Below are positions 1 through 45,499 of a stretch of 45,499 bases of DNA, one piece after another. The position numbers and the translations under genes are program-made. The notes beneath the pieces are model-generated. The model did not search any database, had not been told where the DNA came from, and saw only the letters and a program-made list of their open reading frames with translations. Source of the stretch: Candidatus Humicultor tengchongensis (GTDB lineage: Bacteria > Sysuimicrobiota > Sysuimicrobiia > Sysuimicrobiales > Humicultoraceae); contig JAVKIA010000019.1 in the NCBI GenBank assembly GCA_031459715.1, positions 1 to 45,499 of the forward strand, written 5' to 3'. How positions within the stretch are numbered: position 1 is the first letter of the stretch; every line of letters begins with the position of its first letter.

Positions 1-441
1 CCCCGCCTCGTCGCCGACCCCCGGGGGAAGGGCCAGCATGTCGGCGGCGGTGATCTCCGCAGGGACCAGCGCATACTCGCACAGGCCGCCGGGCGTAAGG
101 CGCGTGCGCTGCCAGGCGGGACAGTGCACGTACTGGCCCCGGCGGCAGGCGCGACAGCGCAGGCAGGGCGCGTGGTGGTGAACGAAAACCCGTGCACCCG
201 GCTCCAGGGCCACCCCCTCGCCAGCAGCCACCACCTCGCCCACCGGCTCGTGCCCCAGCACCAGCGGAGCCTTGCGCCTCATATACCAGGCCAGCGTTTC
301 GCTGCTGCACAGCCCGCAGGCACGGATGCGCACCAGTGCCTCCCCCGGGCCTGGGGCGCGCAGGGGGACGGTCTCCAGCCGGAGGTCGTCCGGGCCGTGG
401 AAGACGGCGGCGCGGGTCGCGGCGGGTAGCGTCAGCACCAC
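1..441 (-). CDS. Zinc-dependent alcohol dehydrogenase (MDR family), N-terminal part; the gene runs off the window start
   Basis: My own minus-strand translation is an open frame from about 441 to position 1. It reads (V)VLTLPAATRAAVFHGPDDLRLETVPLRAPGPGEALVRIRACGLCSSETLAWYMRRKAPLVLGHEPVGEVVAAGEG...HAPCLRCRACRRGQYVHC. The GHE zinc-ADH signature and structural-zinc Cys cluster are present. A GTG start overlaps the end of the downstream paralog. It is absent from the ORF track because it is incomplete. Confidence 0.6.
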   Translation of the reverse strand, partial: MVLTLPAATRAAVFHGPDDLRLETVPLRAPGPGEALVRIRACGLCSSETLAWYMRRKAPLVLGHEPVGEVVAAGEGVALEPGARVFVHHHAPCLRCRACRRGQYVHCPAWQRTRLTPGGLCEYALVPAEITAADMLALPPGVGDEAG

Positions 442-1463
442 TCCGCCGCCTCGGGCATGATGGCCACCTTCACCGGACCACCGCGGTCCAGCTCCTGGAA
501 AACGCCGACGATCTCGTCCAGGGGGCGCACGGCGCTGATGATGGGCCGGACGTCGATGCGCCTCCCGGCGAGCCAGTGGTAGGCCTCGGTGACGTCGGCA
601 GGCGTGTAGTGAAACGCGCTCACCAGGTCCACCTCGCCGTAGTGCAACAGCGCGGCGTCGAAGGTGACCCGGCTGCCGCCGGCCAGCCCGCCGAAGAGCA
701 GGACCTTCCCGCCGGGGCGCACCCATTCCGGCGCCTGCTCCCAGATGTGGTCGGTCCCGGTGGACTCCACCACCACGTCAGGGCGCGCCCCCAGAGCGTC
801 CTCCACCTGCAGGGGAATCTCCCCCTGCTCGATCTCCACCGGTGCCCCGCCAAGCTCCGCCGCCAGCCGCAGCCGCTCCGGGCGCCGTCCCACCGCGGCG
901 ATGCGGTGCCCCAGGACCCGGCCGGTCAGCACCTGCAGCAGGCCGATGGCCCCCAGGCCCACCACCGCCACGGTGGATGGGACGGACAGCCCCAGCCGCC
1001 GCCACCCGTGGAGGACGCAGGCCAGAGGCTCCAGGAAGGCCGCCTCGATGTAAGAGAGGTCCGCCGGCTTGGGCAACAGGTGGCGCGCCACCACCGCAGG
1101 GGAAATCAGCAGGTAGTCGGCGTAGGCGCCCAGGACGATGTCCCGGAACAGGCGCTCACAGTGGTTCTCCGCCCCGGCACGGCAGGCGCGGCAGGTGCCG
1201 CAGGGCGCCGTGGGCACCAGCATGACCGCATCGCCGGGGGCGACCCCATCCACACCGGAGCCCACGGCCACCACATCGCCGGCGCACTCGTGCCCGAAGG
1301 GGCCCGCCGGCAGGCGGGGATGCCCGCGACGGTACGTCTTCAGGTCGGTGCCGCAGGTGAGCGCCGCGCGCACGCGCAGCAATACCTCGCCCGGACCAGG
1401 ACGCGGCACCGGCCGCTCCTCAATGGTGATCACGCGCGGGGATTTCAGGACCGCCTGGCGCAA
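432..1463 (-). CDS. Zinc-binding alcohol/threonine/sorbitol-dehydrogenase-like oxidoreductase (MDR family)
   Basis: 343 aa. Motifs seen: LKSPRVITIEERPVP...CGTD...GHECAGDVVAVG, Cys-rich structural zinc loop (CGTCRACRAGAENHC) and Rossmann GLGAIG. A TTG start sits 6 nt after the upstream stop. Confidence 0.8.
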   Translation of the reverse strand: MRQAVLKSPRVITIEERPVPRPGPGEVLLRVRAALTCGTDLKTYRRGHPRLPAGPFGHECAGDVVAVGSGVDGVAPGDAVMLVPTAPCGTCRACRAGAENHCERLFRDIVLGAYADYLLISPAVVARHLLPKPADLSYIEAAFLEPLACVLHGWRRLGLSVPSTVAVVGLGAIGLLQVLTGRVLGHRIAAVGRRPERLRLAAELGGAPVEIEQGEIPLQVEDALGARPDVVVESTGTDHIWEQAPEWVRPGGKVLLFGGLAGGSRVTFDAALLHYGEVDLVSAFHYTPADVTEAYHWLAGRRIDVRPIISAVRPLDEIVGVFQELDRGGPVKVAIMPEAAEWC

Positions 1464-27654: not shown

Positions 27655-28185
27655 CTACGTGGTCTGCGACCCCCGGGCCAGGGCCACCCGCCCCGTGCGC
27701 ACCATCTCCCGGATGCCGTGCCTGCGCAGCAGCGCCTGCAGGGCGTCGATCTTGTCCGGCTTGCCGCTGACTTCCACCACCACAGTGTGTTCGCCCACGT
27801 CCACCACCCGGGCGCGGAAGATCTGGGCCACGTGCAGTACCTCTTGGCGCGTGCCCGGGGTGACGCTGACCTTGATCAGGGCCAGCTCCCGCTCCACCGT
27901 GTCGCAGCCGGTGAGGTCGTGGACGCGGCGCACCTCCAGGATCTTGTTCAGGTTCTTCACCACCTGCTCCGCCTGCTCGTCTCCCTCCAGGACCACCAGC
28001 ATGCGGGAGATCCGCCGGTCGTCGGTCACCCCTACGGAGAGGCTGTGGATGTTGTAGCCGCGGCGGCGGATCAGCCCGGCAATCTTGGCCAGCACGCCGG
28101 GGCTGTTCTCCACCAGCAGCGAAATGCTGCGGACCGTAGTCGGAGGCTGGCCGTTGGGCTGCCGCCGGATGCGGGCGCCATCCAT
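27655..28185 (-). CDS. ilvN: Acetolactate synthase small (regulatory) subunit
   Basis: It is the C-terminal 176 aa of the 387-aa track ORF. It has an ACT domain ([32 protein letters not shown]). The ATG overlaps the ilvB TGA (ATGA). Confidence 0.9.
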
Positions 28186-29978
28186 CACTCCAGAATCATC
28201 TCCTTCACCGACTGCCCGGAGGGGATCATCGGGAAGCAGTTCTCCTGGGGGTCCACCAGGACGTCCAGCACCACAGGCACATCCGACACCTGCAGCGCCC
28301 AGGCCACCGCGTCCTCCACCTCCTCGGGGCGGCGCACGGTGCGCCCCGCGGCGCCGAAGACCTGGGCCAGCCGGGCGAAGTCGGGGTTCTGCAGCATGAC
28401 GTGGGAGTAGCGCTGGCGGTAGAAGAGCTGCTGCCACTGCCGCACCATGCCCAGGGAGCCGTTGTTGATGATGACCACCTTCACCGGGAGGCGCCACTCC
28501 ACCGCCGTGATCAGGTCCTGCAGCGTCATCTGGAACCCACCGTCGCCCACCAGCGCCACCACCGTGCGCTGCGGGCAGGCCAGCTGCGCCCCTATGGCTG
28601 CAGGGAAGCCGAACCCCATGGCCCCCAGGCCGCCGGAGCTGATGAAGGTGCGGGGCTCGCGGCAGCGGTAGAACTGCGCCGCCCACATCTGGTGCTGGCC
28701 CACATCCGTGACCACGATGGCCCTTTCCTGGGTGAGGCGGGCTACGGTCTCGCAGACGAACTGGGGCTTGATCACCTGGTCGCCCTGGCGGTAGCGCAGC
28801 GGGTAGCGCTCTCGCCACTCCTGGATCTGGCGCAGCCAGGGCTCGATCTGCGGCGGAGCCGTGATGCGCTCCACCAGGGCCGCCAGCACCAGCTTCGCGT
28901 CGCCCACGATGGGGATGTGCGCCGGCTTGTTCTTACCGATCTCCGCCGGGTCGATGTCGATGTGGATGAAGCGGGCGCGGGGGGCGAAGTCCGCCAGGCG
29001 CCCGGTCACGCGGTCGTCGAAGCGCACCCCCACCGCCAGGATCAGGTCGGCCTCGTTAATGGCGTAGTTGGCATACGCGGTGCCGTGCATCCCCAGCATG
29101 CCCAGACAACGGGGATGGTGCTCGTCGATGGCACCTTTGCCCATCAGGGTCACGGTGACGGGGATCCCCGTGCGCTCCACCAGGCGGGTCAGCTCCGCGG
29201 AGGCCCCCGCGGAGATCACCCCGCCGCCGGCATAGATAATGGGCCGCTCTGCTCCCTGCAGGGCCTCGGCCGCGGCGGCGATCTGGGCGGCGTTGCCCTC
29301 GCGGTGAGGGCGGTAGCGAGCGGTCACGTCTTCCACGGGGCGGGGGACGACCCGGGCCTGGGCCACATCGCGCGGCACGTCCACCAGCACCGGCCCCGGC
29401 CGGCCCGCGGCGGCCACGTAGAAGGCTTCGGCGATGGCCCGGGGCAGGTCGGCGGCATCCCAGACCTGGTAGGCGTGCTTGGTCACCGGCATGGTGATGC
29501 CGATGACGTCGGCCTCCTGGAAGGCGTCCCTCCCGATGACCGCGGTGGGCACCTGGCCGGTGATGGCCACCACCGGCACCGAATCCATGTGGGCGTCGGT
29601 CAGGCCGGTGACCAGGTTGGTGGCTCCCGGCCCGGAGGTGGCCATGCACACCCCCACCCGCCCCGAGGCCCGGGCGTAACCCACTGCTGCGTGGGCGGCC
29701 ACCTGCTCATGGCGAACCAGGACGTGCCGCAGGTCGGCGGCGTCGTAGAGGGCATCATAGATGGGTAACGAGGCGCCGCCGGGTATGCCAAAGATCACCG
29801 CAGCACCGGCCTGACGCAGGGCCTCGACCAGGAGCTCGGCCCCGGACCGGGTGACCTCCCGCCCGGTTGGGGCCAGCTCGCCTCGGGAGCGGCCCAATCG
29901 CGAACGGATTGCTGCCCGCGAGCCAGCCCCGTCTCCTGAGGGTGTGCGCCTGCCTGTGCGGGATGCGGTTACCGTCAT
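28185..29978 (-). CDS. ilvB: Acetolactate synthase large (catalytic) subunit
   Basis: The track ORF is 634 aa. An internal ATG (MTVTAS...) has a GGAGGG SD 6 nt upstream, giving 597 aa. TPP/FAD motifs: GIPGGASLPIYDAL, GDGGFQM. Confidence 0.9.
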   Translation of the reverse strand: MTVTASRTGRRTPSGDGAGSRAAIRSRLGRSRGELAPTGREVTRSGAELLVEALRQAGAAVIFGIPGGASLPIYDALYDAADLRHVLVRHEQVAAHAAVGYARASGRVGVCMATSGPGATNLVTGLTDAHMDSVPVVAITGQVPTAVIGRDAFQEADVIGITMPVTKHAYQVWDAADLPRAIAEAFYVAAAGRPGPVLVDVPRDVAQARVVPRPVEDVTARYRPHREGNAAQIAAAAEALQGAERPIIYAGGGVISAGASAELTRLVERTGIPVTVTLMGKGAIDEHHPRCLGMLGMHGTAYANYAINEADLILAVGVRFDDRVTGRLADFAPRARFIHIDIDPAEIGKNKPAHIPIVGDAKLVLAALVERITAPPQIEPWLRQIQEWRERYPLRYRQGDQVIKPQFVCETVARLTQERAIVVTDVGQHQMWAAQFYRCREPRTFISSGGLGAMGFGFPAAIGAQLACPQRTVVALVGDGGFQMTLQDLITAVEWRLPVKVVIINNGSLGMVRQWQQLFYRQRYSHVMLQNPDFARLAQVFGAAGRTVRRPEEVEDAVAWALQVSDVPVVLDVLVDPQENCFPMIPSGQSVKEMILE

Positions 29979-30370
29979 GCTCTGCCCTCCGGTGAAAACA
30001 AAATGAGCCACCCGTAAGGACGGGCAGCTCCCGTGGTACCACCTTACTTCCGGGGCCCAGAGGGGCGGGGCGGAGATCGCACCGCACATCGCGTGCGGGC
30101 CCGGCCCTGCCCGGAGACCCGGAACTCTTTGCCCGCTATCGGGGGCGAGGACGGCGGAACCTAGTCCCGGGGGACGTCGGTCCCGCGGCTCGGGGACGAG
30201 TTCGTGCGGTCACCGCGGCGGCCAGCTCCCACCTGCCCTGGCTCTCTCCACGCCGCGCGCCGCCTACTGCTTCCCCTCATCGCCGATAAAGCCATAAAGC
30301 CGGCCGGGCCGTCAAGCACGAAAGCCTGAGGCGACAGATTTCACGAGGAACCTCCCCCTCAGGCTTCTGT
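29979..30370 (-). promoter_or_regulatory. Candidate T-box riboswitch leader of the ilv-leu operon (tRNA-Leu, CUC specifier)
   Basis: In the minus-strand RNA, GUAAGG-UGGUACC-ACGGG-AGCUG-CCCGU-CCUUAC forms helix A1, a 7-nt bulge carrying UGGU that could pair the tRNA NCCA end, and helix A2. It resembles the T-box consensus AGGGUGGNACCGCG. A stem-I candidate (AAGCCUGAGG...CCUCAGGCUU) contains GUGA and then CUC-A, the same Leu specifier as the B. subtilis ilv-leu leader. Confidence 0.6.
29995..30030 (-). terminator. Intrinsic terminator of the T-box leader (competes with the antiterminator)
   Basis: The RNA AGCUGCCCGU-CCUU-ACGGGUGGCU forms an ~8-bp stem with an internal mismatch, followed by CAUUUUGUUUU. 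It lies ~25 nt upstream of the ilvB SD. Confidence 0.5.
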
Positions 30371-30394
30371 CCTGACGGCGTAGCGGCGACCGGT

Positions 30395-30446
30395 GCACCG
30401 CCTGCGCCGCTTGGTCCAGACCGGTCCCGGATGGGGACCGCGGAAC
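30395..30446. repeat. Copy A of a conserved bipartite motif, CCTGCGCCGCTTG-(hairpin)-GCGGAACCCTAGGCGC
   Basis: Blocks of 13 and 16 nt are identical to the copy at 35229..35290. The intervening hairpins differ but both pair (A: GGUCCC/GGGACC; B: GCCUUCC/GGAAGC or CCAGG/CCUGG). Confidence 0.5.
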
Positions 30447-30524
30447 CCTAGGCGCACTTCCTCGATCGACCAGCCAAACTCCTATGGACTTGCCGCAAAC
30501 GCTAGCAGAGCGCGGAGCTGTTTG

Positions 30525-33500
30525 TCAAGCCCTGAATCCCGAAAGTTCGGAATCTGGCGAACCGGCCGCCTCCGCAGCATCCTGTCCGAGGAGGCCGCGG
30601 GGGAGGACCTTTCGGAGGCGACCGGCTGAAAAAGGCCAGGCCTGCAGCAGCTCTGCCGCCCGCCGGCTCCCGGTGTGCGCCAGATGCTCGGCGAGGAGGT
30701 CGCGCAGCTCGTGCAGATCTTTCGCTTCGACCTGCACCACCGACACCGTCTCCTGGTTGCACCGGCCGGCGAACAGGCCGTCCTCGTCCAGGACGTAGGC
30801 CCGGCCCCCGGTCATCCCCGCACCGAAGTTGTAGCCGGCGCGGCCCAGCACCACCACTACCCCTCCGGTCATGTACTCGCACCCGTGGTCGCCCACCCCT
30901 TCCACTACGGCCACCGCGCCGCTGTTGCGCACGGCGAAGCGCTCGCCGGCGCGCCCCGCGGCGAAGAACCGGCCGCCGGTGGCGCCGTAGAGGACCGTGT
31001 TGCCCGCGATCACGTTCTCGTGGGAGGCGCCGGTGAAACCACGCGGCGGGCGGATGGCGATCGTTCCCCCGCTCATCCCCTTCCCCGCATAGTCGTTGAC
31101 CTCGCCCTCCAGCTCCAGGACCATCCCCGGGACGCAGAACGCGCCGAAGCTCTGACCCGCGCTCCCGGTAAACCGGAGCACGACGCGTCCCTCCCCCAGT
31201 CCTCCCTCCCCGTACCGCCTGGCGATGGCTCCGGCCAGGCGTCCGCCCACCGTCCGGTCCATGTTGCTGATGGAGTAGGTCAGGTGCACTGGGATGCCGC
31301 GCTCCAGGGCGGGCCAGGCGTCCATCCAGACGCGGTCGTCCAGGGTGGGGCCCTCGGGCCGCTTGTTGCGCGCCTGCATGCAGCGCCGCGCCGCCTCCGG
31401 CACCCCGGCGGACCCGGCCAGGAGCGCGGAAAGGCCGATACGGCGTCCCAGGACGGACTCGTCCACCGGGGATAGCAGCTCGCTGCGCCCGATGACCTCC
31501 TCCAGGGTGCGGGCGCCCAGCGCCGCCAGGTGACGCCGCACCTCCTCGGCCACCGCAAGCAGGTATGCCTCCACCCGCTCGGGCCGTCCGCTGAACCGGC
31601 CTCGCAGGTCCTCCCGCTGCGTGGCGATGCCGGTGGGGCAGGTGTTGAGGTGGCAGGCGCGGGCCATCACGCAGCCCAGGGCGACCAGCGCCGCGGTGCC
31701 GAAGCCGAACTCGTCTGCGCCCAGCAGGGCAGCCACGACCACGTCCCGCCCCGTTTTCAGCCCCCCGTCCACGCGCAGGCGGACCCGCCCGCGCAGCCCG
31801 CTGGCCACCAGCACCTGCTGGGTCTCCGCCAACCCCAGCTCCCAGGGCAGGCCCACGTGCTTGATGGACTCCAGGGGCGAGGCCCCCGTGCCGCCGTCGT
31901 GTCCGCTGATCTGGATGGTGTCGGCAAAGGCCTTGGCCACCCCCGCGGCGATGGTGCCCACACCGGCTTCCGCCACCAGCTTCACAGCCACGCGGGCCAG
32001 AGGATGGACTCGCTTGAGGTCGTAGATGAGCTGGGCCAGGTCCTCGATGCTGTAGATGTCGTGGTGGGGCGGCGGGGAGATCAGCGTGATCCCCGGCTGC
32101 GCGCGGCGGATGGCGGCGATCTCGGCGCTGACCTTGTGGCCGGGGAGCTGGCCTCCCTCGCCCGGCTTGCTCCCCTGCGCCATCTTGATCTCCAGCTCGT
32201 CGGCCGATACCAGGTAGGCCGCAGTCACCCCGAATCGTGCCGAGGCCACCTGCTTGATCCGGCTGTTGGCGTTGGTGCCGTCGGGCCGGGGGAGGTAGCG
32301 GGAGGGATCCTCGCCCCCCTCGCCGCTGTTGGAGCGGGCCCCCAGGCGGTTGGCGGCGATGGCCAGGGCCTCATGTGCCTCCCGGGAGAGCGCCCCGTGG
32401 GACATCGCTGAGAGGACGAAGCGGCGCACGATGGCGTCGGCAGGCTCCACCTCCTCCAGAGGGACGGGCTCCCGCCGGACAAAGGCCAGCAGGTCGCGCA
32501 GGGCGGTGGGGGGGCGGGAGGCGACCAGGTCGGCGAAGGCGGTGTAGGCCTGGCCGCTGCCCGACTGGGCGGCCTGGTGCAGCCGCTTCACTACATAAGG
32601 GTTGAAGGCGTGGTATTCACCGTCGCGGCGGAAGCGGACCAGCCCCGGGTCCGCCAGCTCTCCATCTCCGGCGAAGGCGCGTGCGTGGCGGGCGGCCGCC
32701 TGGGCGGCCAATTCGTCCAGGGAGACGCCGCCCAGGTGGGCGGGCGTGCCGGGGAAGTAGCGCTCCACCACCTGAGGGTCCAGCCCCACGACCTCGAAGA
32801 CCTGCCCGCCCTGGTACCCGGCGAGGGTGCTGATTCCCATCTTGCTGGCCACCTTGAGCAACCCCTGCTCCAGAGCGCTGAGGTACTGCCGGACCGAGGG
32901 TCGGCGGCCGTTGGCGGAGGGCAGCGCGGCCACGGTCTCCAGGGCCAGGTAGGGGCAGACCGCCTCAACTCCGTAGCCCAGCAGGCAGGCTACCTGGTGG
33001 ACGGTACGCGCTTCACCGCTCTCGACCAGCAGACCCACCCGCATGCGCAGCCCCACCCGGATGAGGTGATGGTGAACGGCGCTGGCGGCCAGGAGCATGG
33101 GGATGGGGATGCGTTTTGGGTCGGCGGCGCGGTCGCTGAGGATGAGCAGACCTGCCCCTTCTGAAACTGCGGATTCCGCCTCGCCGGCCAGACGGACAAG
33201 CGCAGCCTCCAGCGAGTCGCGGTCCGCAGGCCACGTGGCGTCCAGAACCACCGCCGGCCAGGGAGCGTGGGCGCGCACCCAGCCAAGCTGGTCGGGGGTG
33301 AGCACGGGCGAGGGGAAGGCCAGCAGCGCGGCGTGTTCGGGGCCATCCTCCAGCCAGTTGCGCCGCGGGCCCACCCGGACGGCAAGCGACATCACCAGCC
33401 GCTCCCGCAGGGGGTCGATCGGCGGATTGGTCACCTGGGCGAACCGCTGGCGGAAGTAATCGTAGAGGAGCCGGGGCCGTTGAGACAGGGCAGCGGGCGG

Positions 33501-35108
33501 GGTGTCGTCACCCATGGAGAAGACGACCTCCTTGCCCTCGGTGGCCATCGGCAGGAGGAGGTAGGTCACCTCTTCAGCCGTATACCCGAACACCTGCTGG
33601 CGGCGGCGCAGCCTGGCCCCGGCTGCGCTGTCTTGGGGTGGCGCTCCTGCATCAGGAGCGAGCGCCGCCTGCTCCGGCCCCTTCGCCGGCACCGGGGGTT
33701 CCCAGTTCCCGCCCGGGACGCGGATGATCCGGCGCGTCCACTCCCGGTAGGACCTGGCCGCGGCCACCTGTGCCTTTATCTCCGCGTCCGCCAGCATCTG
33801 GCCGGTGACAGTGTCCACCGCCAGGACCTGGCCCGGCCCCAACCGCCCCTTGCGCACCACCTGATCTGCGGGAAACGGTAGGACCCCAGCCTCTGACGCC
33901 AGCACTACCAGCCCCTCTGCCGTCACGGCGTAGCGGGCGGGTCGCAGGCCGTTACGGTCGAGGGCCGCGGCCACGATGCGCCCGTCGGAGCAGGCCAGCG
34001 CCGCGGGTCCGTCCCACGGCTCGGTCAGGCAGGCGTGGTACTCGTAGAAGGCGCGCACCGCATCGGGCAGGTCCGGGAGCTCCTCCCACGCCTGCGGGAC
34101 CAGCATCAGGAGGGCATGGAGCAGAGAGCGGCCCGAGGCCACCAGCAGCTCCAGGACGCTGTCCAGGTGGGCGCTGTCGCTTCCGCCCTCCTGCAGCAGC
34201 GGGACCAGGTCCCTCCACCGGTCGGCCCAGAGGGACTCCCGCAGCATCGCTTCCCGCGCGCGGGTCCAGAGGAGGTTGCCCTGCAGGGTGTTGATCTCCC
34301 CGTTGTGCGCCAGGTAGCGAAAGGGCTGGGCCAGCCACCAGCTGGGGGAGGTGTTGGTGCTGTACCGCTGGTGGAAGACCGCCAGCCGGGTGACGTAGGC
34401 GGGGTCGGTCAGGTCGCCATAGAAGCGCCCGAGTTGGGGGGAGACGAAGAGGCCTTTGTAGACCACGGTCCGGTGCGAGAAAGAAGCGATGTAGGCTCCA
34501 AGACCGGATTCCCGCAGGCGTCGCTCTGCCGTCCTCCGGGCGAGGTAGAGGCTGCGGGTGAAGGCAGGGTCATCATCCCCCGCCCGCCGCACGACCACGA
34601 GCTGTCGGATCACCGGCTGCGTCACGCGGGCGAAGGCTCCAAGTGCGTCCGGGTCTACGGGAACGGGCCGCCAGCCCAGGACGCGCAACCCCTGAGAACA
34701 CGCGGCCTGCTCAATCAGCGCCGCAGCCTCGTCTGCGGCAGCAGATGGCAGGAACACCATGGCCAGGGCCAGGTCCTCATCGCCCACGTCCCCCAGCGGG
34801 AGGTCGCGGCGCAGCAGGTCATAGGGAAGCTGGGTGAGCACCCCCGCTCCGTCCCCCGACTTCCCGTCGGCGGAGACGGCCCCACGGTGGCTCATCCGGG
34901 AGACGGCGGAGAGCGCCGCGGCCAGCACAGCGTGGCTGGGGAAGCGGTGGGCAACGAACCCTACGCCGCAGGCGTCGTGTTCCGCGATCGGGCTGACCAC
35001 TGGACCTCCCTTAGACTTCCTCAGGGCAAGCCGTCCGTCACAGGCGACTTTCAGGACAGCGCCCGCTCCAGGATCCCCTGCTATGCACGAAGCCCGAGGG
35101 CGAGGCAC
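30525..35108 (-). CDS. gltB: Glutamate synthase large subunit (GltB/GltS type)
   Basis: 1527 aa. Motifs: HDACGVGF, FSHRTVVYKG, GEGG (the FMN/4Fe-4S region) and a C-terminal GxxGxxG beta-helix. The ORF start is GTG. An alternative GTG at about 35000 has an AAGGGAGGT SD and leaves 10 aa before the catalytic Cys. Confidence 0.9.
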   Translation of the reverse strand: MPRPRASCIAGDPGAGAVLKVACDGRLALRKSKGGPVVSPIAEHDACGVGFVAHRFPSHAVLAAALSAVSRMSHRGAVSADGKSGDGAGVLTQLPYDLLRRDLPLGDVGDEDLALAMVFLPSAAADEAAALIEQAACSQGLRVLGWRPVPVDPDALGAFARVTQPVIRQLVVVRRAGDDDPAFTRSLYLARRTAERRLRESGLGAYIASFSHRTVVYKGLFVSPQLGRFYGDLTDPAYVTRLAVFHQRYSTNTSPSWWLAQPFRYLAHNGEINTLQGNLLWTRAREAMLRESLWADRWRDLVPLLQEGGSDSAHLDSVLELLVASGRSLLHALLMLVPQAWEELPDLPDAVRAFYEYHACLTEPWDGPAALACSDGRIVAAALDRNGLRPARYAVTAEGLVVLASEAGVLPFPADQVVRKGRLGPGQVLAVDTVTGQMLADAEIKAQVAAARSYREWTRRIIRVPGGNWEPPVPAKGPEQAALAPDAGAPPQDSAAGARLRRRQQVFGYTAEEVTYLLLPMATEGKEVVFSMGDDTPPAALSQRPRLLYDYFRQRFAQVTNPPIDPLRERLVMSLAVRVGPRRNWLEDGPEHAALLAFPSPVLTPDQLGWVRAHAPWPAVVLDATWPADRDSLEAALVRLAGEAESAVSEGAGLLILSDRAADPKRIPIPMLLAASAVHHHLIRVGLRMRVGLLVESGEARTVHQVACLLGYGVEAVCPYLALETVAALPSANGRRPSVRQYLSALEQGLLKVASKMGISTLAGYQGGQVFEVVGLDPQVVERYFPGTPAHLGGVSLDELAAQAAARHARAFAGDGELADPGLVRFRRDGEYHAFNPYVVKRLHQAAQSGSGQAYTAFADLVASRPPTALRDLLAFVRREPVPLEEVEPADAIVRRFVLSAMSHGALSREAHEALAIAANRLGARSNSGEGGEDPSRYLPRPDGTNANSRIKQVASARFGVTAAYLVSADELEIKMAQGSKPGEGGQLPGHKVSAEIAAIRRAQPGITLISPPPHHDIYSIEDLAQLIYDLKRVHPLARVAVKLVAEAGVGTIAAGVAKAFADTIQISGHDGGTGASPLESIKHVGLPWELGLAETQQVLVASGLRGRVRLRVDGGLKTGRDVVVAALLGADEFGFGTAALVALGCVMARACHLNTCPTGIATQREDLRGRFSGRPERVEAYLLAVAEEVRRHLAALGARTLEEVIGRSELLSPVDESVLGRRIGLSALLAGSAGVPEAARRCMQARNKRPEGPTLDDRVWMDAWPALERGIPVHLTYSISNMDRTVGGRLAGAIARRYGEGGLGEGRVVLRFTGSAGQSFGAFCVPGMVLELEGEVNDYAGKGMSGGTIAIRPPRGFTGASHENVIAGNTVLYGATGGRFFAAGRAGERFAVRNSGAVAVVEGVGDHGCEYMTGGVVVVLGRAGYNFGAGMTGGRAYVLDEDGLFAGRCNQETVSVVQVEAKDLHELRDLLAEHLAHTGSRRAAELLQAWPFSAGRLRKVLPRGLLGQDAAEAAGSPDSELSGFRA

Positions 35109-35228
35109 CCACCGGACTGTGCACTCCGGCGAGTGCGAACCTCTCCCTCGGGCTTCTCTCCCGATGGTAGACCGGCCGACCCCACCCGATCCGCTCAGGA
35201 ACCAGACCGGGGAACTGTCGGTATTTCG

Positions 35229-35290
35229 CTGCCGGCCTGCGCCGCTTGAACCAGGCCTTCCCCTGGTGGAGGAAGCGGAACCCTAGGCGC
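35229..35290. repeat. Copy B of the same conserved bipartite motif
   Basis: CCTGCGCCGCTTGaaCCAG...GCGGAACCCTAGGCGC, lying ~120-180 nt upstream of the gltB start on the minus strand. Confidence 0.5.
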
Positions 35291-35564
35291 CTCTCGCGCC
35301 AAGCGCGAGGAACTTGGCGCCATGGTTGCAGCCGGTCGGGATCCTGTCAAGCGGTTCGTTCGCGTAACTCGAACATTCTGGCAAGAACCCGGGGAGCGCA
35401 TGTGGCTCCCCTGACGGCTTCCGCTCCCTGCAGTGCCTGAGATCCGAGCCTGGGCCTGCGAGCGATCCCCGGGCCGGGCCGTGGACTCCCACGCTCGGTG
35501 AGGCCCTGAAAGCTCTCACTTCCGGCCGATCCTCATTCCTGGTAAGGTCAAAAGATGATCGCCC

Positions 35565-35867
35565 ATGGGGACCGAGACCACCGGCGTCAGGCTTGCCCGG
35601 CTGGAAGGCGCCTACGAGCAGATTGACAGGCGCCTGGGCACCATCGAGGGGCGCCTGGCCGTGCTGGAAGGCAAGGTGGACGCCGGGTTCGCCCGACTCG
35701 ACGCCAAGATCGGCGGGAAGATCGACGCGCTCGCCTCCGAGCTGCGGGAGGCGATCGTGCGTACCAACGCCCGGATGGATGCCCTGGGCGCCCGTCTGAA
35801 CACCGCGATGTTTGGCATCGTGGCCGCCGTCCTGGTTCCCATCCTCCTGCGCCTTTTCTGGCCCTGA
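35565..35867 (+). CDS. Small coiled-coil protein with a C-terminal transmembrane helix (XhlA/haemolysin-XhlA-like)
   Basis: 100 aa. Heptad-like LARLEGAYEQIDRRLGTIEGRLAVLEGKVDAGFARLDAKIGGKIDALASELREAI followed by MFGIVAAVLVPILLRLFW. G/C-rich codon third positions are consistent with genuine coding. No holin or lysin lies nearby. Confidence 0.5.
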   Translation: MGTETTGVRLARLEGAYEQIDRRLGTIEGRLAVLEGKVDAGFARLDAKIGGKIDALASELREAIVRTNARMDALGARLNTAMFGIVAAVLVPILLRLFWP

Positions 35868-43085: not shown

Positions 43086-43727
43086 GTGAGAATGGCCGGG
43101 TTGCGCAATTTGAAGAAATTACCGGCCACCCTCTTTGGCGTGATGCTGGATGCTCCGGGCATGGATCTGGATCGCCGCATCACAGTCGTCCCGGCGGGCT
43201 GTTCTGCGCCGGCCCTAACTCCTGACGACCTCGCGGCCTACCAGCGCACAGTGGGGGAGATCCTGGACGCCCACCGCCCTGGCCTGCTGGTGGTTGAGAA
43301 CGAGGAAAACTCGGCTCTGTTCTATCGGGGCACACCTCGGGAGTACGGGGCTGAGCTTCAGGCGGCCCACTCAGGTGCAGGAGCAACTGGCACGGGGAAG
43401 GGCGCTGCTGGCGCAGTACCGGGCCGCCGGTGCCGACTTTCTCAGTATCCACCGGTACATTCCCGACCCACAGGCTCTGCGCCAGGCGGTCATCCTCCTG
43501 CGGCAGCGGTTGGGGCTCCGCTGGTAACCAATGAGATCGCCCAGCACGACCACAACCCGCAGACGACCACGGCCCTGCTGACGGCGGTGGCGGACCTGCG
43601 TTTGCCTTACGCGGTGTGGTTCAGCATCGACGCTGCACGGGCCCGGGCGCTGATGAACCCAGACGGGACGCTGCGCCCAACCGGCGAGGCCTTCCGGGCA
43701 TTCATGGCCGGCCGGACACACCGGTAA
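43086..43727 (+). pseudogene. Frameshifted hypothetical gene (possibly hydrolase-like, with a VVENEENS motif)
   Basis: Coding-like sequence switches frame 1 -> 2 -> 1. The track ORFs 43086..43727 and 43294..43527 share the locus, and a W-stop falls at 43525. Its N-terminal segment is paralogous to the partial gene at 45305. Confidence 0.4.
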
Positions 43728-44587: not shown

Positions 44588-45112
44588 TCACGCAGCCCCG
44601 TAGCGCTCCCAGGAGACGATCTGCTCCAGGGGCTTCCGCCCCCTGTGCAGCAACACCCGGTAGACGATACGTTCCACCGGGCTGCGCTTCTTCGCGGGAA
44701 GGCCGAAGGCCACCACCACGGCGAGCTTCATGGAGGGAGGTAGCCCCAGGAGTTCCTTGGCCCTGGCCTCATCGTGCATCACGGTGGGACAGGAGCCCAC
44801 TCCCAGCGCCCAGGCGGCCAGCATCATGTTCTGCGCGCAGCGGCCCGCGTCGAAGCTATCCCGCTCCGCTTCTACGGCCACAGCCACCGCAAACGCCGCG
44901 TCGGCCAGGTGGGCCGCGAACCGACCGCAGCGTGCCAGTTGCTTGAGGCCCTGCCTCTCCGTGACCACCACGAAGTGCCACGGTTGCCGGTTGCGGCTGC
45001 TCCCGCTCCACCGCCCGGCCTCCAGAATCTGCACGATGGTCTCCCTGGGGACCTTCGCGGCGAGGAAGGACCGTACCTCACGCTTGCTCCGGATGCAGCG
45101 GTATGCCTCCAC
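44588..45112 (-). CDS. Nitroreductase family protein
   Basis: It is the C-terminal ~174 aa of the 269-aa track ORF. GTG start at V96, with an AAGAGG SD 7 nt upstream. Motifs: AYRCIRSKREVRSF...RNRQPWHFVVV... Confidence 0.7.
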   Translation of the reverse strand: MEAYRCIRSKREVRSFLAAKVPRETIVQILEAGRWSGSSRNRQPWHFVVVTERQGLKQLARCGRFAAHLADAAFAVAVAVEAERDSFDAGRCAQNMMLAAWALGVGSCPTVMHDEARAKELLGLPPSMKLAVVVAFGLPAKKRSPVERIVYRVLLHRGRKPLEQIVSWERYGAA

Positions 45113-45304
45113 GGCCAGGCCTCTTGAGCCACGCTTCAGGTCCAGTGTACCGTGGTCTGCCGCACCCCGTGCACCCGGGCAACCGCCCCTGAGCGCAGCG
45201 GGAGCCCGGCCGCCCTCGGTCGAATCACAGGCGGGGGAGCGGTCCGGTGGCAGAGGCAGACCAGGAACCCGCAGGAGCACAGCGAGAAGTGGCAGAGGGT
45301 CGCT

Positions 45305-45499
45305 ATGTCCGCCCCAACGACGTCCGCATCTGCGGCCGCACCGCCGGAGGATCCCGCCGCCTTCCGGCGCACGGGCGGAGAGATCCTGGACGCGCACCGC
45401 CCCGCGCTCCTGGTGGTCGAGAACGAGGAGAACTCCGCTATGGAGACTAAAGCTGCGGCCCTCGCATTGGTGGTAGCAGCGGTGTTCCCGGGCTTCGGC
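45305..45499 (+). CDS. Partial CDS (5' end) running off the window; the N-terminus is paralogous to the 43086 gene
   Basis: ATG with a GAGGG SD 5 nt upstream. MSAPTTSASAAAPPEDPAAFRRTGGEILDAHRPALLVVENEENSA compares with CSAPALTPDDLAAYQRTVGEILDAHRPGLLVVENEENSA. It is about 85% identical over ~75 nt, then diverges. Confidence 0.4.
   Translation, partial: MSAPTTSASAAAPPEDPAAFRRTGGEILDAHRPALLVVENEENSAMETKAAALALVVAAVFPGFG

Follow-up and report, generated by a model that had tools for sequence, protein, structure and literature searches.

In a 45,499-nt stretch of DNA from Candidatus Humicultor tengchongensis (contig JAVKIA010000019.1 of assembly GCA_031459715.1; this whole stretch is called the window below), a short bipartite motif occurs twice, once upstream of the ilv-leu operon (copy A) and once upstream of the glutamate synthase gene gltB (copy B). 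We conclude, with a probability of roughly 85%, that both copies are the 5′ cores of minus-strand riboswitch aptamers that belong to ykkC subtype 2a, the class that recognizes guanosine tetraphosphate (ppGpp). The case is one of a known system, namely two ppGpp-class riboswitches, one of which stands in the known tandem arrangement with a leucine T-box. This reading is carried by an RNA fold with covariation, by the signatures of the subtype, by terminators that are mutually exclusive with the aptamers, and by a gene context that is conserved in relatives.

A repeat search of the window returned the motif as one ungapped 56-nt direct-repeat family (30400-30455 and 35235-35290, 79% identity) whose outer blocks of 14 and 16 nt are identical between the copies. 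An earlier note, made from the letters alone, had described the two copies with correctly quoted sequences, although its coordinates were slightly off (30395-30446 for copy A, and 35229 as the beginning of copy B). Its identical blocks are confirmed by exact searches, which placed the 16-mer GCGGAACCCTAGGCGC at 30440-30455 and 35275-35290 and the 13-mer CCTGCGCCGCTTG at 30401-30413 and 35236-35248, with no other site for either in the window. The spacer hairpins and the GCGCC/GGCGC pairing that it proposed are also real, and correspond to P1b and P1 of the minus-strand RNA. The motif is not a complete unit, however: the 56 nt are just the 5′ half (P1-P1a-P1b) of an aptamer of 120-165 nt, and in an alignment of the minus-strand leaders the similarity between A and B runs past the 56 nt into a second block (…CC.UC.GGA.AGAAGCC.GAGGG.GAGGUUC…) and the hairpin that follows it. 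A supposed third, degenerate copy, GGAACCTAG (approximately 30156-30164), lies within the T-box match and is missed by the covariance model described below, and is a chance resemblance.

Rfam at gathering thresholds matched nothing anywhere in the window, and in E-value mode it gave just three matches, all on the minus strand, two of them to RF00442 (the ykkC/Guanidine-I aptamer) and one to RF00230. The RF00442 matches fall on copy A (30462-30353, 58.8 bits, E = 6e-9) and copy B (35297-35143, 42.8 bits, E = 2.5e-5, with a 52-nt insertion in P2); both span the full model yet score under its gathering score of 63, which is the behaviour expected of ykkC variants of the non-guanidine-binding subtype 2. 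Relatives, of which individual loci are cited below by L numbers, were gathered in three ways: by a genome scan with a subtype-2 pattern (120 loci), by a metagenome scan for GC-rich relatives (34 loci), and from contigs with identical or homologous proteins (the IlvC of the window is encoded identically in the metagenome-assembled genomes (MAGs) GCA_031458955.1, GCA_031459065.1 and GCA_031458875.1). A covariance model, R1, was seeded with 44 putative 2a sequences, among them copy A but not copy B. Run on the window with filters off, it found exactly the two copies and nothing else below E = 1, scoring 118 bits (E = 6e-30) on copy A as a seed member and 60–71 bits (E = 2e-14 to 2e-16) on the non-seed copy B, well outside what chance would give.

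Structure statistics were calculated from 56 sequences (53 distinct) aligned to R1. In this alignment 93.9% of cells were paired, compared with 31–46% when partners were slid, and the covariation score was 0.552 against 0.189 in shuffles, a value that none of 500 shuffles reached. All six helices pair well, and five of them, including P0, have pairs changed on both sides, with the two-pair P1a as the helix that has none; in P0 (helix 1) each of the six pairs has such changes and 88% of cells are paired. The differing spacers of the two copies make up P1b (CGGUCCC/GGGACCG in A, CUUCCUC/GGGGAAG in B) and contain three fully compensatory pairs. Moreover, both copies have the ykkC architecture, with the P1-P1a-P1b stack, P2, P3 and the CUAGGGUUCCG / CUGG..C.AG core, and minimum free energy (MFE) folds of the aptamers alone reproduce P0, P1, P1b, P2 and P3. 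The covariance analysis thus upholds one of the options in the earlier note, a structured RNA whose flanks are conserved and whose core varies by compensatory changes.

These data also bear on two explanations at the level of DNA. An operator or promoter element bound by a shared regulator of amino acids or nitrogen would fit a motif that has an inverted repeat as its frame and two biosynthetic units downstream, but that repeat forms P1 of an RNA with helices that pair and covary as described, the variable centre preserves pairing and not sequence, and the element runs for another 65–110 nt into P2, P3 and P0. In addition, homologues in Bacillota, in Armatimonadota-labelled MAGs and in other MAGs keep the same RNA register, and the element lies downstream of conserved TTGACA and −10-like boxes, hence in the transcribed leader and not in the promoter-appropriate position that had been assigned to it. 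We consider an operator highly improbable; the 56-nt motif was rejected as an operator or promoter-associated element on the covarying fold and its place in the leader. A dispersed repeat like a repetitive extragenic palindrome (REP) or a miniature inverted-repeat transposable element (MITE) might likewise place two direct copies on the flanks of one gene by chance. The sensitive model with filters off nevertheless found just two copies in 45.5 kb (a count for the window, not for the whole genome), distant genomes carry the element at orthologous positions and before the same classes of gene, and there are neither target-site duplications nor terminal inverted repeats beyond P1, so that the probability of a chance repeat is practically negligible.

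The subtype was assigned from the published class definitions of Sherlock, Sudarsan & Breaker 2018 (PMC6003355), Knappenberger et al. 2018 (PMC6031431) and Sherlock et al. 2018b (PMC5912903). Subtype 2 carries a pyrimidine in place of the A that is conserved in guanidine-I (A46; C49 in T. mathranii numbering) (PMC6031431), and in subtypes 2a and 2b conserved 5′ and 3′ tails build the extra helix P0 (PMC6003355, PMC6031431, PMC5912903). In the class 2b, which binds phosphoribosyl pyrophosphate (PRPP), G96 is more than 97% conserved and is paired to the conserved C75 (PMC6031431), whereas the ppGpp class lacks G96, which leaves C75 free to pair with the guanine of ppGpp (PMC6003355, PMC6031431). 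In both copies the marker position is C and not A (…CAAG-C-G…; coordinates in the table), and P0 is present with the conserved 5′ AG and 3′ AGG (CGAGGA/UCCUCG in A, GCGAG/UUCGC in B). The 3′ tails read CCUG-A-GGGGGAGG-UUCCUCG in A and CCCG-A-GGGAGAGG-UUCGC in B. Pair C81-G95 covaries (CG 33, GC 15, UA 3, UG 2), and therefore the G after CCY belongs to P3 and the next nucleotide is position 96, which is A in both copies and in 49 of the 56 sequences of the column. Taking the G after CCY as ‘G96’, which would be PRPP-like, was ruled out by this covariation with C81 and by the T. mathranii primer sequences, in which the wild-type PRPP tail is GCCCG-G-GAGGAUAGG-UUUCAC and the ppGpp-binding G96A tail is GCCCG-A-GAGGAUAGG (PMC6031431); the tails of both copies match that engineered ppGpp-binding aptamer (...GCCCGAGAGG...). 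The pocket nucleotides C77, C78 and G48 are present in both copies, and copy A keeps the ligand-pairing C75.

RF00442 is the sole ykkC-type Rfam family matched and the overall fold is common to all ykkC subtypes, so we weighed whether the elements could be guanidine-I or PRPP riboswitches. Their scores, which fall short of the gathering score of 63 (58.8 and 42.8 bits), the C at the marker position and the downstream genes, of which none is guanidine-related, speak against guanidine-I; the A at position 96 and the lack of purine genes downstream speak against PRPP. Moreover, relatives of the PRPP type have a tail that is one nucleotide longer (11 nt), with G96, usually follow the 3′ end of a guanine aptamer, and precede purL, purC, purE or a xanthine/uracil-family permease, while neither copy in the window has a guanine aptamer. 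There is very little chance that either of these classes is the right one.

Downstream context was read by local blastx of the 5.5 kb after every match against the proteins of the window. Every relative with the tail CCYGAGGGRKAGGUUCC and enough downstream sequence precedes gltB or ilvB-ilvN-ilvC-leuA, and in relatives before ilvB a T-box core motif follows the aptamer at a distance of 320–490 nt; relatives both close and distant preserve the succession of riboswitch, terminator, T-box, terminator and ilvB. One relative, L029, is Candidatus Thermofontivivens primus of the phylum Candidatus Sysuimicrobiota (CSP1-3). Published 2a elements precede genes for branched-chain amino acids, glutamate synthase genes or natA-type ABC (ATP-binding cassette) transporters, a Leu T-box stands in tandem with approximately 40% of those linked to branched-chain amino acids, and an organism that carries a gltB copy usually has a branched-chain copy too (PMC6003355). 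On sequence, structure and context together, the two elements are therefore grouped with subtype 2a. The earlier statements that the motif lies in the leaders of two amino-acid biosynthesis units, beside a T-box, and that conservation in related genomes should be found, are borne out, since the orthologous leaders of metagenomic relatives keep both elements.

Other sampled matches precede a class-IV aminotransferase (ilvE-like), a natA-like ABC ATPase or EamA transporters. Among the genome-scan loci (L004-L123), many matches from Actinomycetota (Microbacterium, Mycolicibacterium and others) and Pseudomonadota have CAUCU or GCACC in junction J2/3 and precede EamA-family transporters; these resemble the still-orphan ykkC subtype 2d. 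One genome-scan match (L021) precedes a GMP-synthase-like gene. On the metagenomic contig L139, a second, 197-nt ykkC-2a-like match (364-560, minus strand, 87 bits, with CUGGGG for CUAGGG) lies approximately 10 kb downstream of the ilv riboswitch.

B-type gltB leaders were sought through GltB homologues, and only two close lineages were found. The aptamer B core is 93–100% identical in relatives, compared with 37–65% in the spacer before gltB and 77–80% in the 5′ end of gltB; hence the element is under selection and not decaying. A P2 extension of approximately 55 nt, with compensatory changes, is common to the B-type leaders. In more distant lineages (L159-L162, at approximately 2300-2500; MAGs GCA_031459375.1 and others; GltB 68% identical) the gltB leader has a TTGACA promoter and a terminator-like hairpin (AGCCCGAGGAGG...CCUCGGGCUUCGCCUUUG), and R1 has no match on the sense strand of these leaders, in which the aptamer is absent; this looks like a lineage-specific loss of the riboswitch.

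Each aptamer is a four-way junction of P0, P1-P1a-P1b, P2 and P3, and its 3′ part (the 3′ strand of P3, the pocket tail and the 3′ strand of P0) can alternatively build the 5′ arm of the downstream terminator. By analogy with the family, binding of (p)ppGpp would hold P3 and P0 in place and block the terminator, so that RNA polymerase reads through; aptamer B would control gltB in this way, and aptamer A would control ilvB-ilvN-ilvC-leuA-leuC-leuB-ilvD. In the ilv-leu leader an independent Leu (CUC) T-box with its own terminator follows, and the alarmone and uncharged leucine transfer RNA would both be required, as in a two-input AND gate. The ligand and the ON logic of both aptamers are predicted from membership in the family, 2a elements being ON switches in which P3 serves as the antiterminator (PMC6003355, PMC6031431, PMC5912903).

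The computed MFE structures of the full leaders agree with the expression platform of such a switch, as in both of them the terminator is mutually exclusive with P3 and P0. The 5′ arm of hairpin A overlaps the 3′ strand of P3 and position 96, and the hairpin is formed in the MFE structure (−75.2 kcal/mol, compared with −65.5 with the aptamer enforced). In leader B the 5′ arm overlaps the 3′ strand of P3 and the pocket tail, and the hairpin forms at the cost of P3/P0 (−112.0 kcal/mol in the OFF state, compared with −96.6 with P0/P1/P3 enforced). The OFF states are therefore more stable than the aptamer-enforced states by approximately 10 (A) and 15 kcal/mol (B), a gap that is typical of kinetically controlled ON switches. 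Hairpin A is kept with compensatory changes in L133 and L142, and hairpin B is conserved in relatives. The T-box was recognized by a full-length match to RF00230 (30289-30013, 45.4 bits, E = 8.5e-8, under the gathering score of 93), and its GAA-CUC-G specifier context (Leu) and T-box sequence are kept in L133 and L142, as is the Shine–Dalgarno and ATG context of ilvB in relatives. Copy A does lie after the gltB stop codon (30525-30527), as the earlier note stated, starting 70 nt past it, but it is 112–166 nt upstream of the 5′ end of the T-box (30289) and not approximately 35–80. Similarly, the gltB start had been placed at 35108, while the gene call gives GTG 35000, a start kept in relatives; copy B is thus 236–290 nt upstream of gltB, instead of approximately 120–180.

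Each leader is preceded by a TTGACA box and a TGc-xAxCxT element that are conserved in relatives, the gltB-leader promoter being unchanged in five related leaders and the ilv-leu promoter kept in L133 and L142; both assignments are putative and were made by eye. The putative ilv-leu −35 box (30523-30528) contains the stop codon TGA of gltB (30527-30525). No terminator lies between gltB and riboswitch A, and hence read-through from gltB may enter the ilv leader, and the two units are perhaps partly co-transcribed. A short way upstream of both putative −35 boxes we found a palindrome, GTTCG-N5-9-CGAAC, that occurs exactly twice in the window (0.07 expected; 0 of 100 shuffles reached 2), with centres 28 and 18.5 nt from the −35 centres of the A and B leaders, that is, approximately one helical turn apart. 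In four related B-type leaders the arms of the gltB-leader palindrome are conserved and its centre varies, and the ilv-leader palindrome is kept in L142 but not in L133. This palindrome, which is distinct from the repeated motif, may be the better candidate for a shared operator.

Several points weigh against the assignment of the two copies to the ppGpp class. Neither reaches the Guanidine-I gathering score, and the Rfam scan of the window yielded no dedicated ppGpp family. The seed of R1 contained copy A, and the retrieval pattern fixed CTAGGGTTCCG and AGCG, which makes any statistics on those columns circular. Both riboswitch terminators are followed by weak U-tracts (UUUCGUGCUU in A, GUGCAU in B), and a terminator scan of the leaders called only the T-box terminator and neither riboswitch hairpin, both of which have long loops and poor T-runs; in the validated D. 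hafniense element, too, the U-run is interrupted (PMC6003355). A strict sigma-70 scan called no promoter in either leader, where the promoters were assigned by eye and conservation. Copy A has G at position 76, the lone exception among the 56 sequences, as all 55 others have A, and A is also found in its closest relatives (IlvB 93–94% identical). Finally, copy B has U at position 75 and so lacks the conserved ligand-pairing C of subtype 2a, and in a validated ppGpp aptamer the change from C to U led to a preference for pAp (adenosine 3′,5′-bisphosphate) over its guanosine counterpart pGp and ppGpp (PMC6003355).

The ligand-pairing nucleotide, which is numbered C75, C71 or C69 in three numbering schemes, is C in 54 of the 56 aligned sequences, and the two exceptions with U are copy B (U35169) and the metagenomic relative L130, whose GltB is 88–89% identical; the inspected PRPP-type rows also keep C75. 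Across the four B-type lineages, positions 75 and 96 read U/A (copy B), U/A (L130), C/A (L133/L145) and C/G (L158). The gltB leader of L158 (2092-2266; Joint Genome Institute (JGI) Ga0137716_10010739) thus has C75 together with G96, a PRPP-like combination in an otherwise ppGpp-type aptamer, and G in the position-96 column is found also in L099, L120 and L011. Copy B is best called a 2a-derived variant, and its ligand or affinity may differ.

One explanation of U75 is that copy B and L130 form a natural specificity variant that senses an adenine analogue, (p)ppApp (the adenosine counterpart of (p)ppGpp) or pAp, instead of (p)ppGpp. U35169 is aligned with C75 in a structure-aware alignment, and purifying selection acts strongly on the remainder of aptamer B, so that simple decay does not account for the change. 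In the engineered mutant M8 (C71U) of the T. oceani ppGpp aptamer, the preference was switched from G to A ligands, with pAp preferred over pGp and ppGpp and a dissociation constant (KD) for pAp of approximately 50 µM, and the authors knew of no natural example of such a C-to-U aptamer (PMC6003355). M8 is artificial, whereas copy B carries the same change naturally, as does L130, and copy B has C and not A at position 74 in another sequence background. In the guanine/adenine riboswitch pair (C74 versus U74), which has a different fold from ykkC 2a, a single C-to-U change at the ligand-pairing nucleotide gives a natural adenine class (PMC6031431). Our full-text literature search found no report of a natural ppApp riboswitch. 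For ykkC 2a, we know of no natural U class that has been described. However, U is present in only two lineages, and the sisters L133/L145 and L158 have C; a guanine ligand might instead be paired by the C74 of B-type leaders; an internal pair of U75 with A96 could form, and L158 has C75/G96; ppApp is not known to be linked physiologically to glutamate synthase; and copy A, in the same genome, keeps C75. We regard an adenine-sensing variant as distinctly unlikely, and it is more doubtful still that copy B and L130 would be the first natural U75 variants of 2a, acting as adenine-alarmone sensors in an organism with two alarmone-type inputs (C75 at ilv-leu, U75 at gltB).

Alternatively, copy B could be a ppGpp riboswitch with a weakened, tuned or ligand-independent pocket (C75U; A96G in L158), with gltB controlled mainly at its promoter. 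Both derived 75/96 states can form a Watson–Crick pair, as C75-G96 does in PRPP aptamers, the more distant L159-L162 lost the aptamer from the gltB leader altogether, and the palindrome at the gltB promoter is conserved. The high conservation of aptamer core and terminator nevertheless argues for continued function as a switch, and a ligand-blind ON switch would terminate constitutively before a gene that is expected to be important for nitrogen assimilation. Moreover, a handful of bona fide 2a contexts (L099, L120) have G at position 96 as well, which indicates that the position tolerates variation. A weakened pocket is thus a tentative and, on balance, unlikely reading. The natural U in copy B and L130, in an otherwise strongly conserved aptamer, would mean either a natural ppApp-type riboswitch or a position that is more tolerant than has been thought.

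The closest known systems are the ppGpp riboswitches of T. oceani ilvE and D. hafniense ilvE (PMC6003355) and of Clostridiales oral taxon 876 (PMC10687018), which share the fold including the add-on P0. Like the former (PMC6003355), both copies have C at the ‘A46’ marker, a nucleotide other than G at position 96, the 5′ AG and the 3′ AGG; the overlap of the terminator 5′ arm with P3/P0, the association with branched-chain amino acid genes and gltB, and the presence of both copies in one organism are likewise shared. Unlike them, copy B has U at the ligand-pairing C and the long P2 extension, copy A has G at A76, the G+C content is very high with weak U-tracts, the ligand is predicted from sequence, and the host is an uncultivated MAG of the Sysuimicrobiota (CSP1-3) and not a Firmicute. 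The tandem AND gate of ppGpp riboswitch and Leu T-box (PMC6003355; PMC5912903, Fig. 6C) has the same order, with a CUC specifier, separate terminators and branched-chain amino acid genes; different here is that the beginning of the leader lies within the 3′ end of gltB, a gene that is itself riboswitch-controlled, with the putative −35 box overlapping the gltB stop codon. The PRPP riboswitch of T. mathranii and its G96A mutant (PMC6031431) have a near-identical consensus, and the tails CCYG-A-GGG...AGG-UUC of A and B match GCCCG-A-GAGGAUAGG-UUUC of G96A; the wild type differs in the G96 paired to C75, the tail that is one nucleotide longer, the guanine aptamer usually ahead of it and the purine genes it controls.

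For annotation, these observations mean that routine Rfam searches give only sub-threshold Guanidine-I matches for such leaders, which are then left blank or mislabelled. Their recognition accounts for two ‘empty’ intergenic regions of approximately 300–530 nt and, with the ligand predicted from the family, would tie gltB and the whole ilv-leu operon to the stringent response. The combination of riboswitch and T-box as an AND gate, known mainly in Firmicutes, would also exist in Sysuimicrobiota (CSP1-3) and in Armatimonadota-labelled MAGs.

Table. Coordinates in the window of the features of the gltB and ilv-leu leaders and of adjoining genes
Feature	Position	Strand	Details
hom	37169-35877	minus	upstream of gltB
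Candidate operator palindrome GTTCG-N7-CGAAC	35358..35374	none	7 nt upstream of putative gltB −35; outside riboswitch
Putative gltB-leader promoter	35322..35350	minus	−35 TTGACA 35350-35345, 17-nt spacer, TGc-AACCAT 35327-35322 (extended −10-like)
Predicted aptamer B (ykkC 2a-like)	35135..35297	minus	RF00442, model R1, column statistics
Aptamer B, P0	35297-35293 (5′ strand), 35139-35135 (3′ strand)	minus	
Aptamer B, AG, P1 and marker	35292-35291 (AG), 35290-35286 (P1 5′ strand), 35244 (marker C)	minus	
Aptamer B, J2/3	35170 (C74), 35169 (U75), 35168-35166 (A76-C78)	minus	position 75 is C in relatives
Aptamer B, P3 and position 96	35163-35149 (P3), A35148 (position 96)	minus	
Terminator-like hairpin B	35089..35156	minus	5′ arm GAAGCCCGAGGG 35156-35145; 3′ arm CCCUCGGGCUUC 35100-35089
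gltB (glutamate synthase large subunit, 1491 aa)	30525..35000	minus	NCBIfam NF008730, 1729 bits; gene call start 35000
Second palindrome GTTCG-N8-CGAAC	30545..30562	none	16 nt upstream of putative ilv −35, inside gltB 3′ coding end
Putative ilv-leu promoter	30499..30528	minus	−35 TTGACA 30528-30523, 18-nt spacer, TGc-TAGCGT 30504-30499
Predicted aptamer A (ykkC subtype 2a)	30344..30464	minus	RF00442, model R1, aptamer-only MFE, column statistics
Aptamer A, P0	30464-30459 (5′ strand), 30349-30344 (3′ strand)	minus	
Aptamer A, AG, P1 and marker	30458-30457 (A,G), 30456-30451 (P1 5′ strand), 30408-30403 (P1 3′ strand), 30409 (marker C)	minus	
Aptamer A, P2 and pocket	30402-30382 (P2), 30380 (C75), 30379 (G76), 30378-30377 (C77-C78)	minus	
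Aptamer A, P3 and position 96	30374-30360 (P3), A30359 (position 96)	minus	
Terminator hairpin A	30312..30366	minus	5′ arm AAGCCUGAGG 30366-30357; 3′ arm CCUCAGGCUU 30331-30322; then UUUCGUGCUU
Leucine T-box leader	30013..30289	minus	specifier CUC 30200-30198; T-box sequence AAGGUGGUACCACG 30045-30032
T-box intrinsic terminator	29995..30030	minus	11-bp stem 30030-30005, then AUUUUGUUUU; terminator scan
ilvB	28185..29978	minus	first operon gene; NCBIfam TIGR00118 and others; likely start ATG 29978
Operon predicted to be controlled, ilvB-ilvN-ilvC-leuA-leuC-(leuD)-leuB-ilvD	down to ~20551	minus	

Some further features of the window lie outside the two leaders. An open reading frame (ORF) of 100 aa (35565-35867, plus strand), which is placed between hom and the gltB leader and opposite to them in strand, has no Pfam match and is called as a gene in the source MAGs. 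A scan of the window for transfer RNA genes found none. A 110-nt direct repeat with 78% identity (43210-43319 and 45333-45442) lies inside the plus-strand ORFs 43086-43727 and 44730-45476, and seems to be a segment conserved between two paralogous coding sequences.

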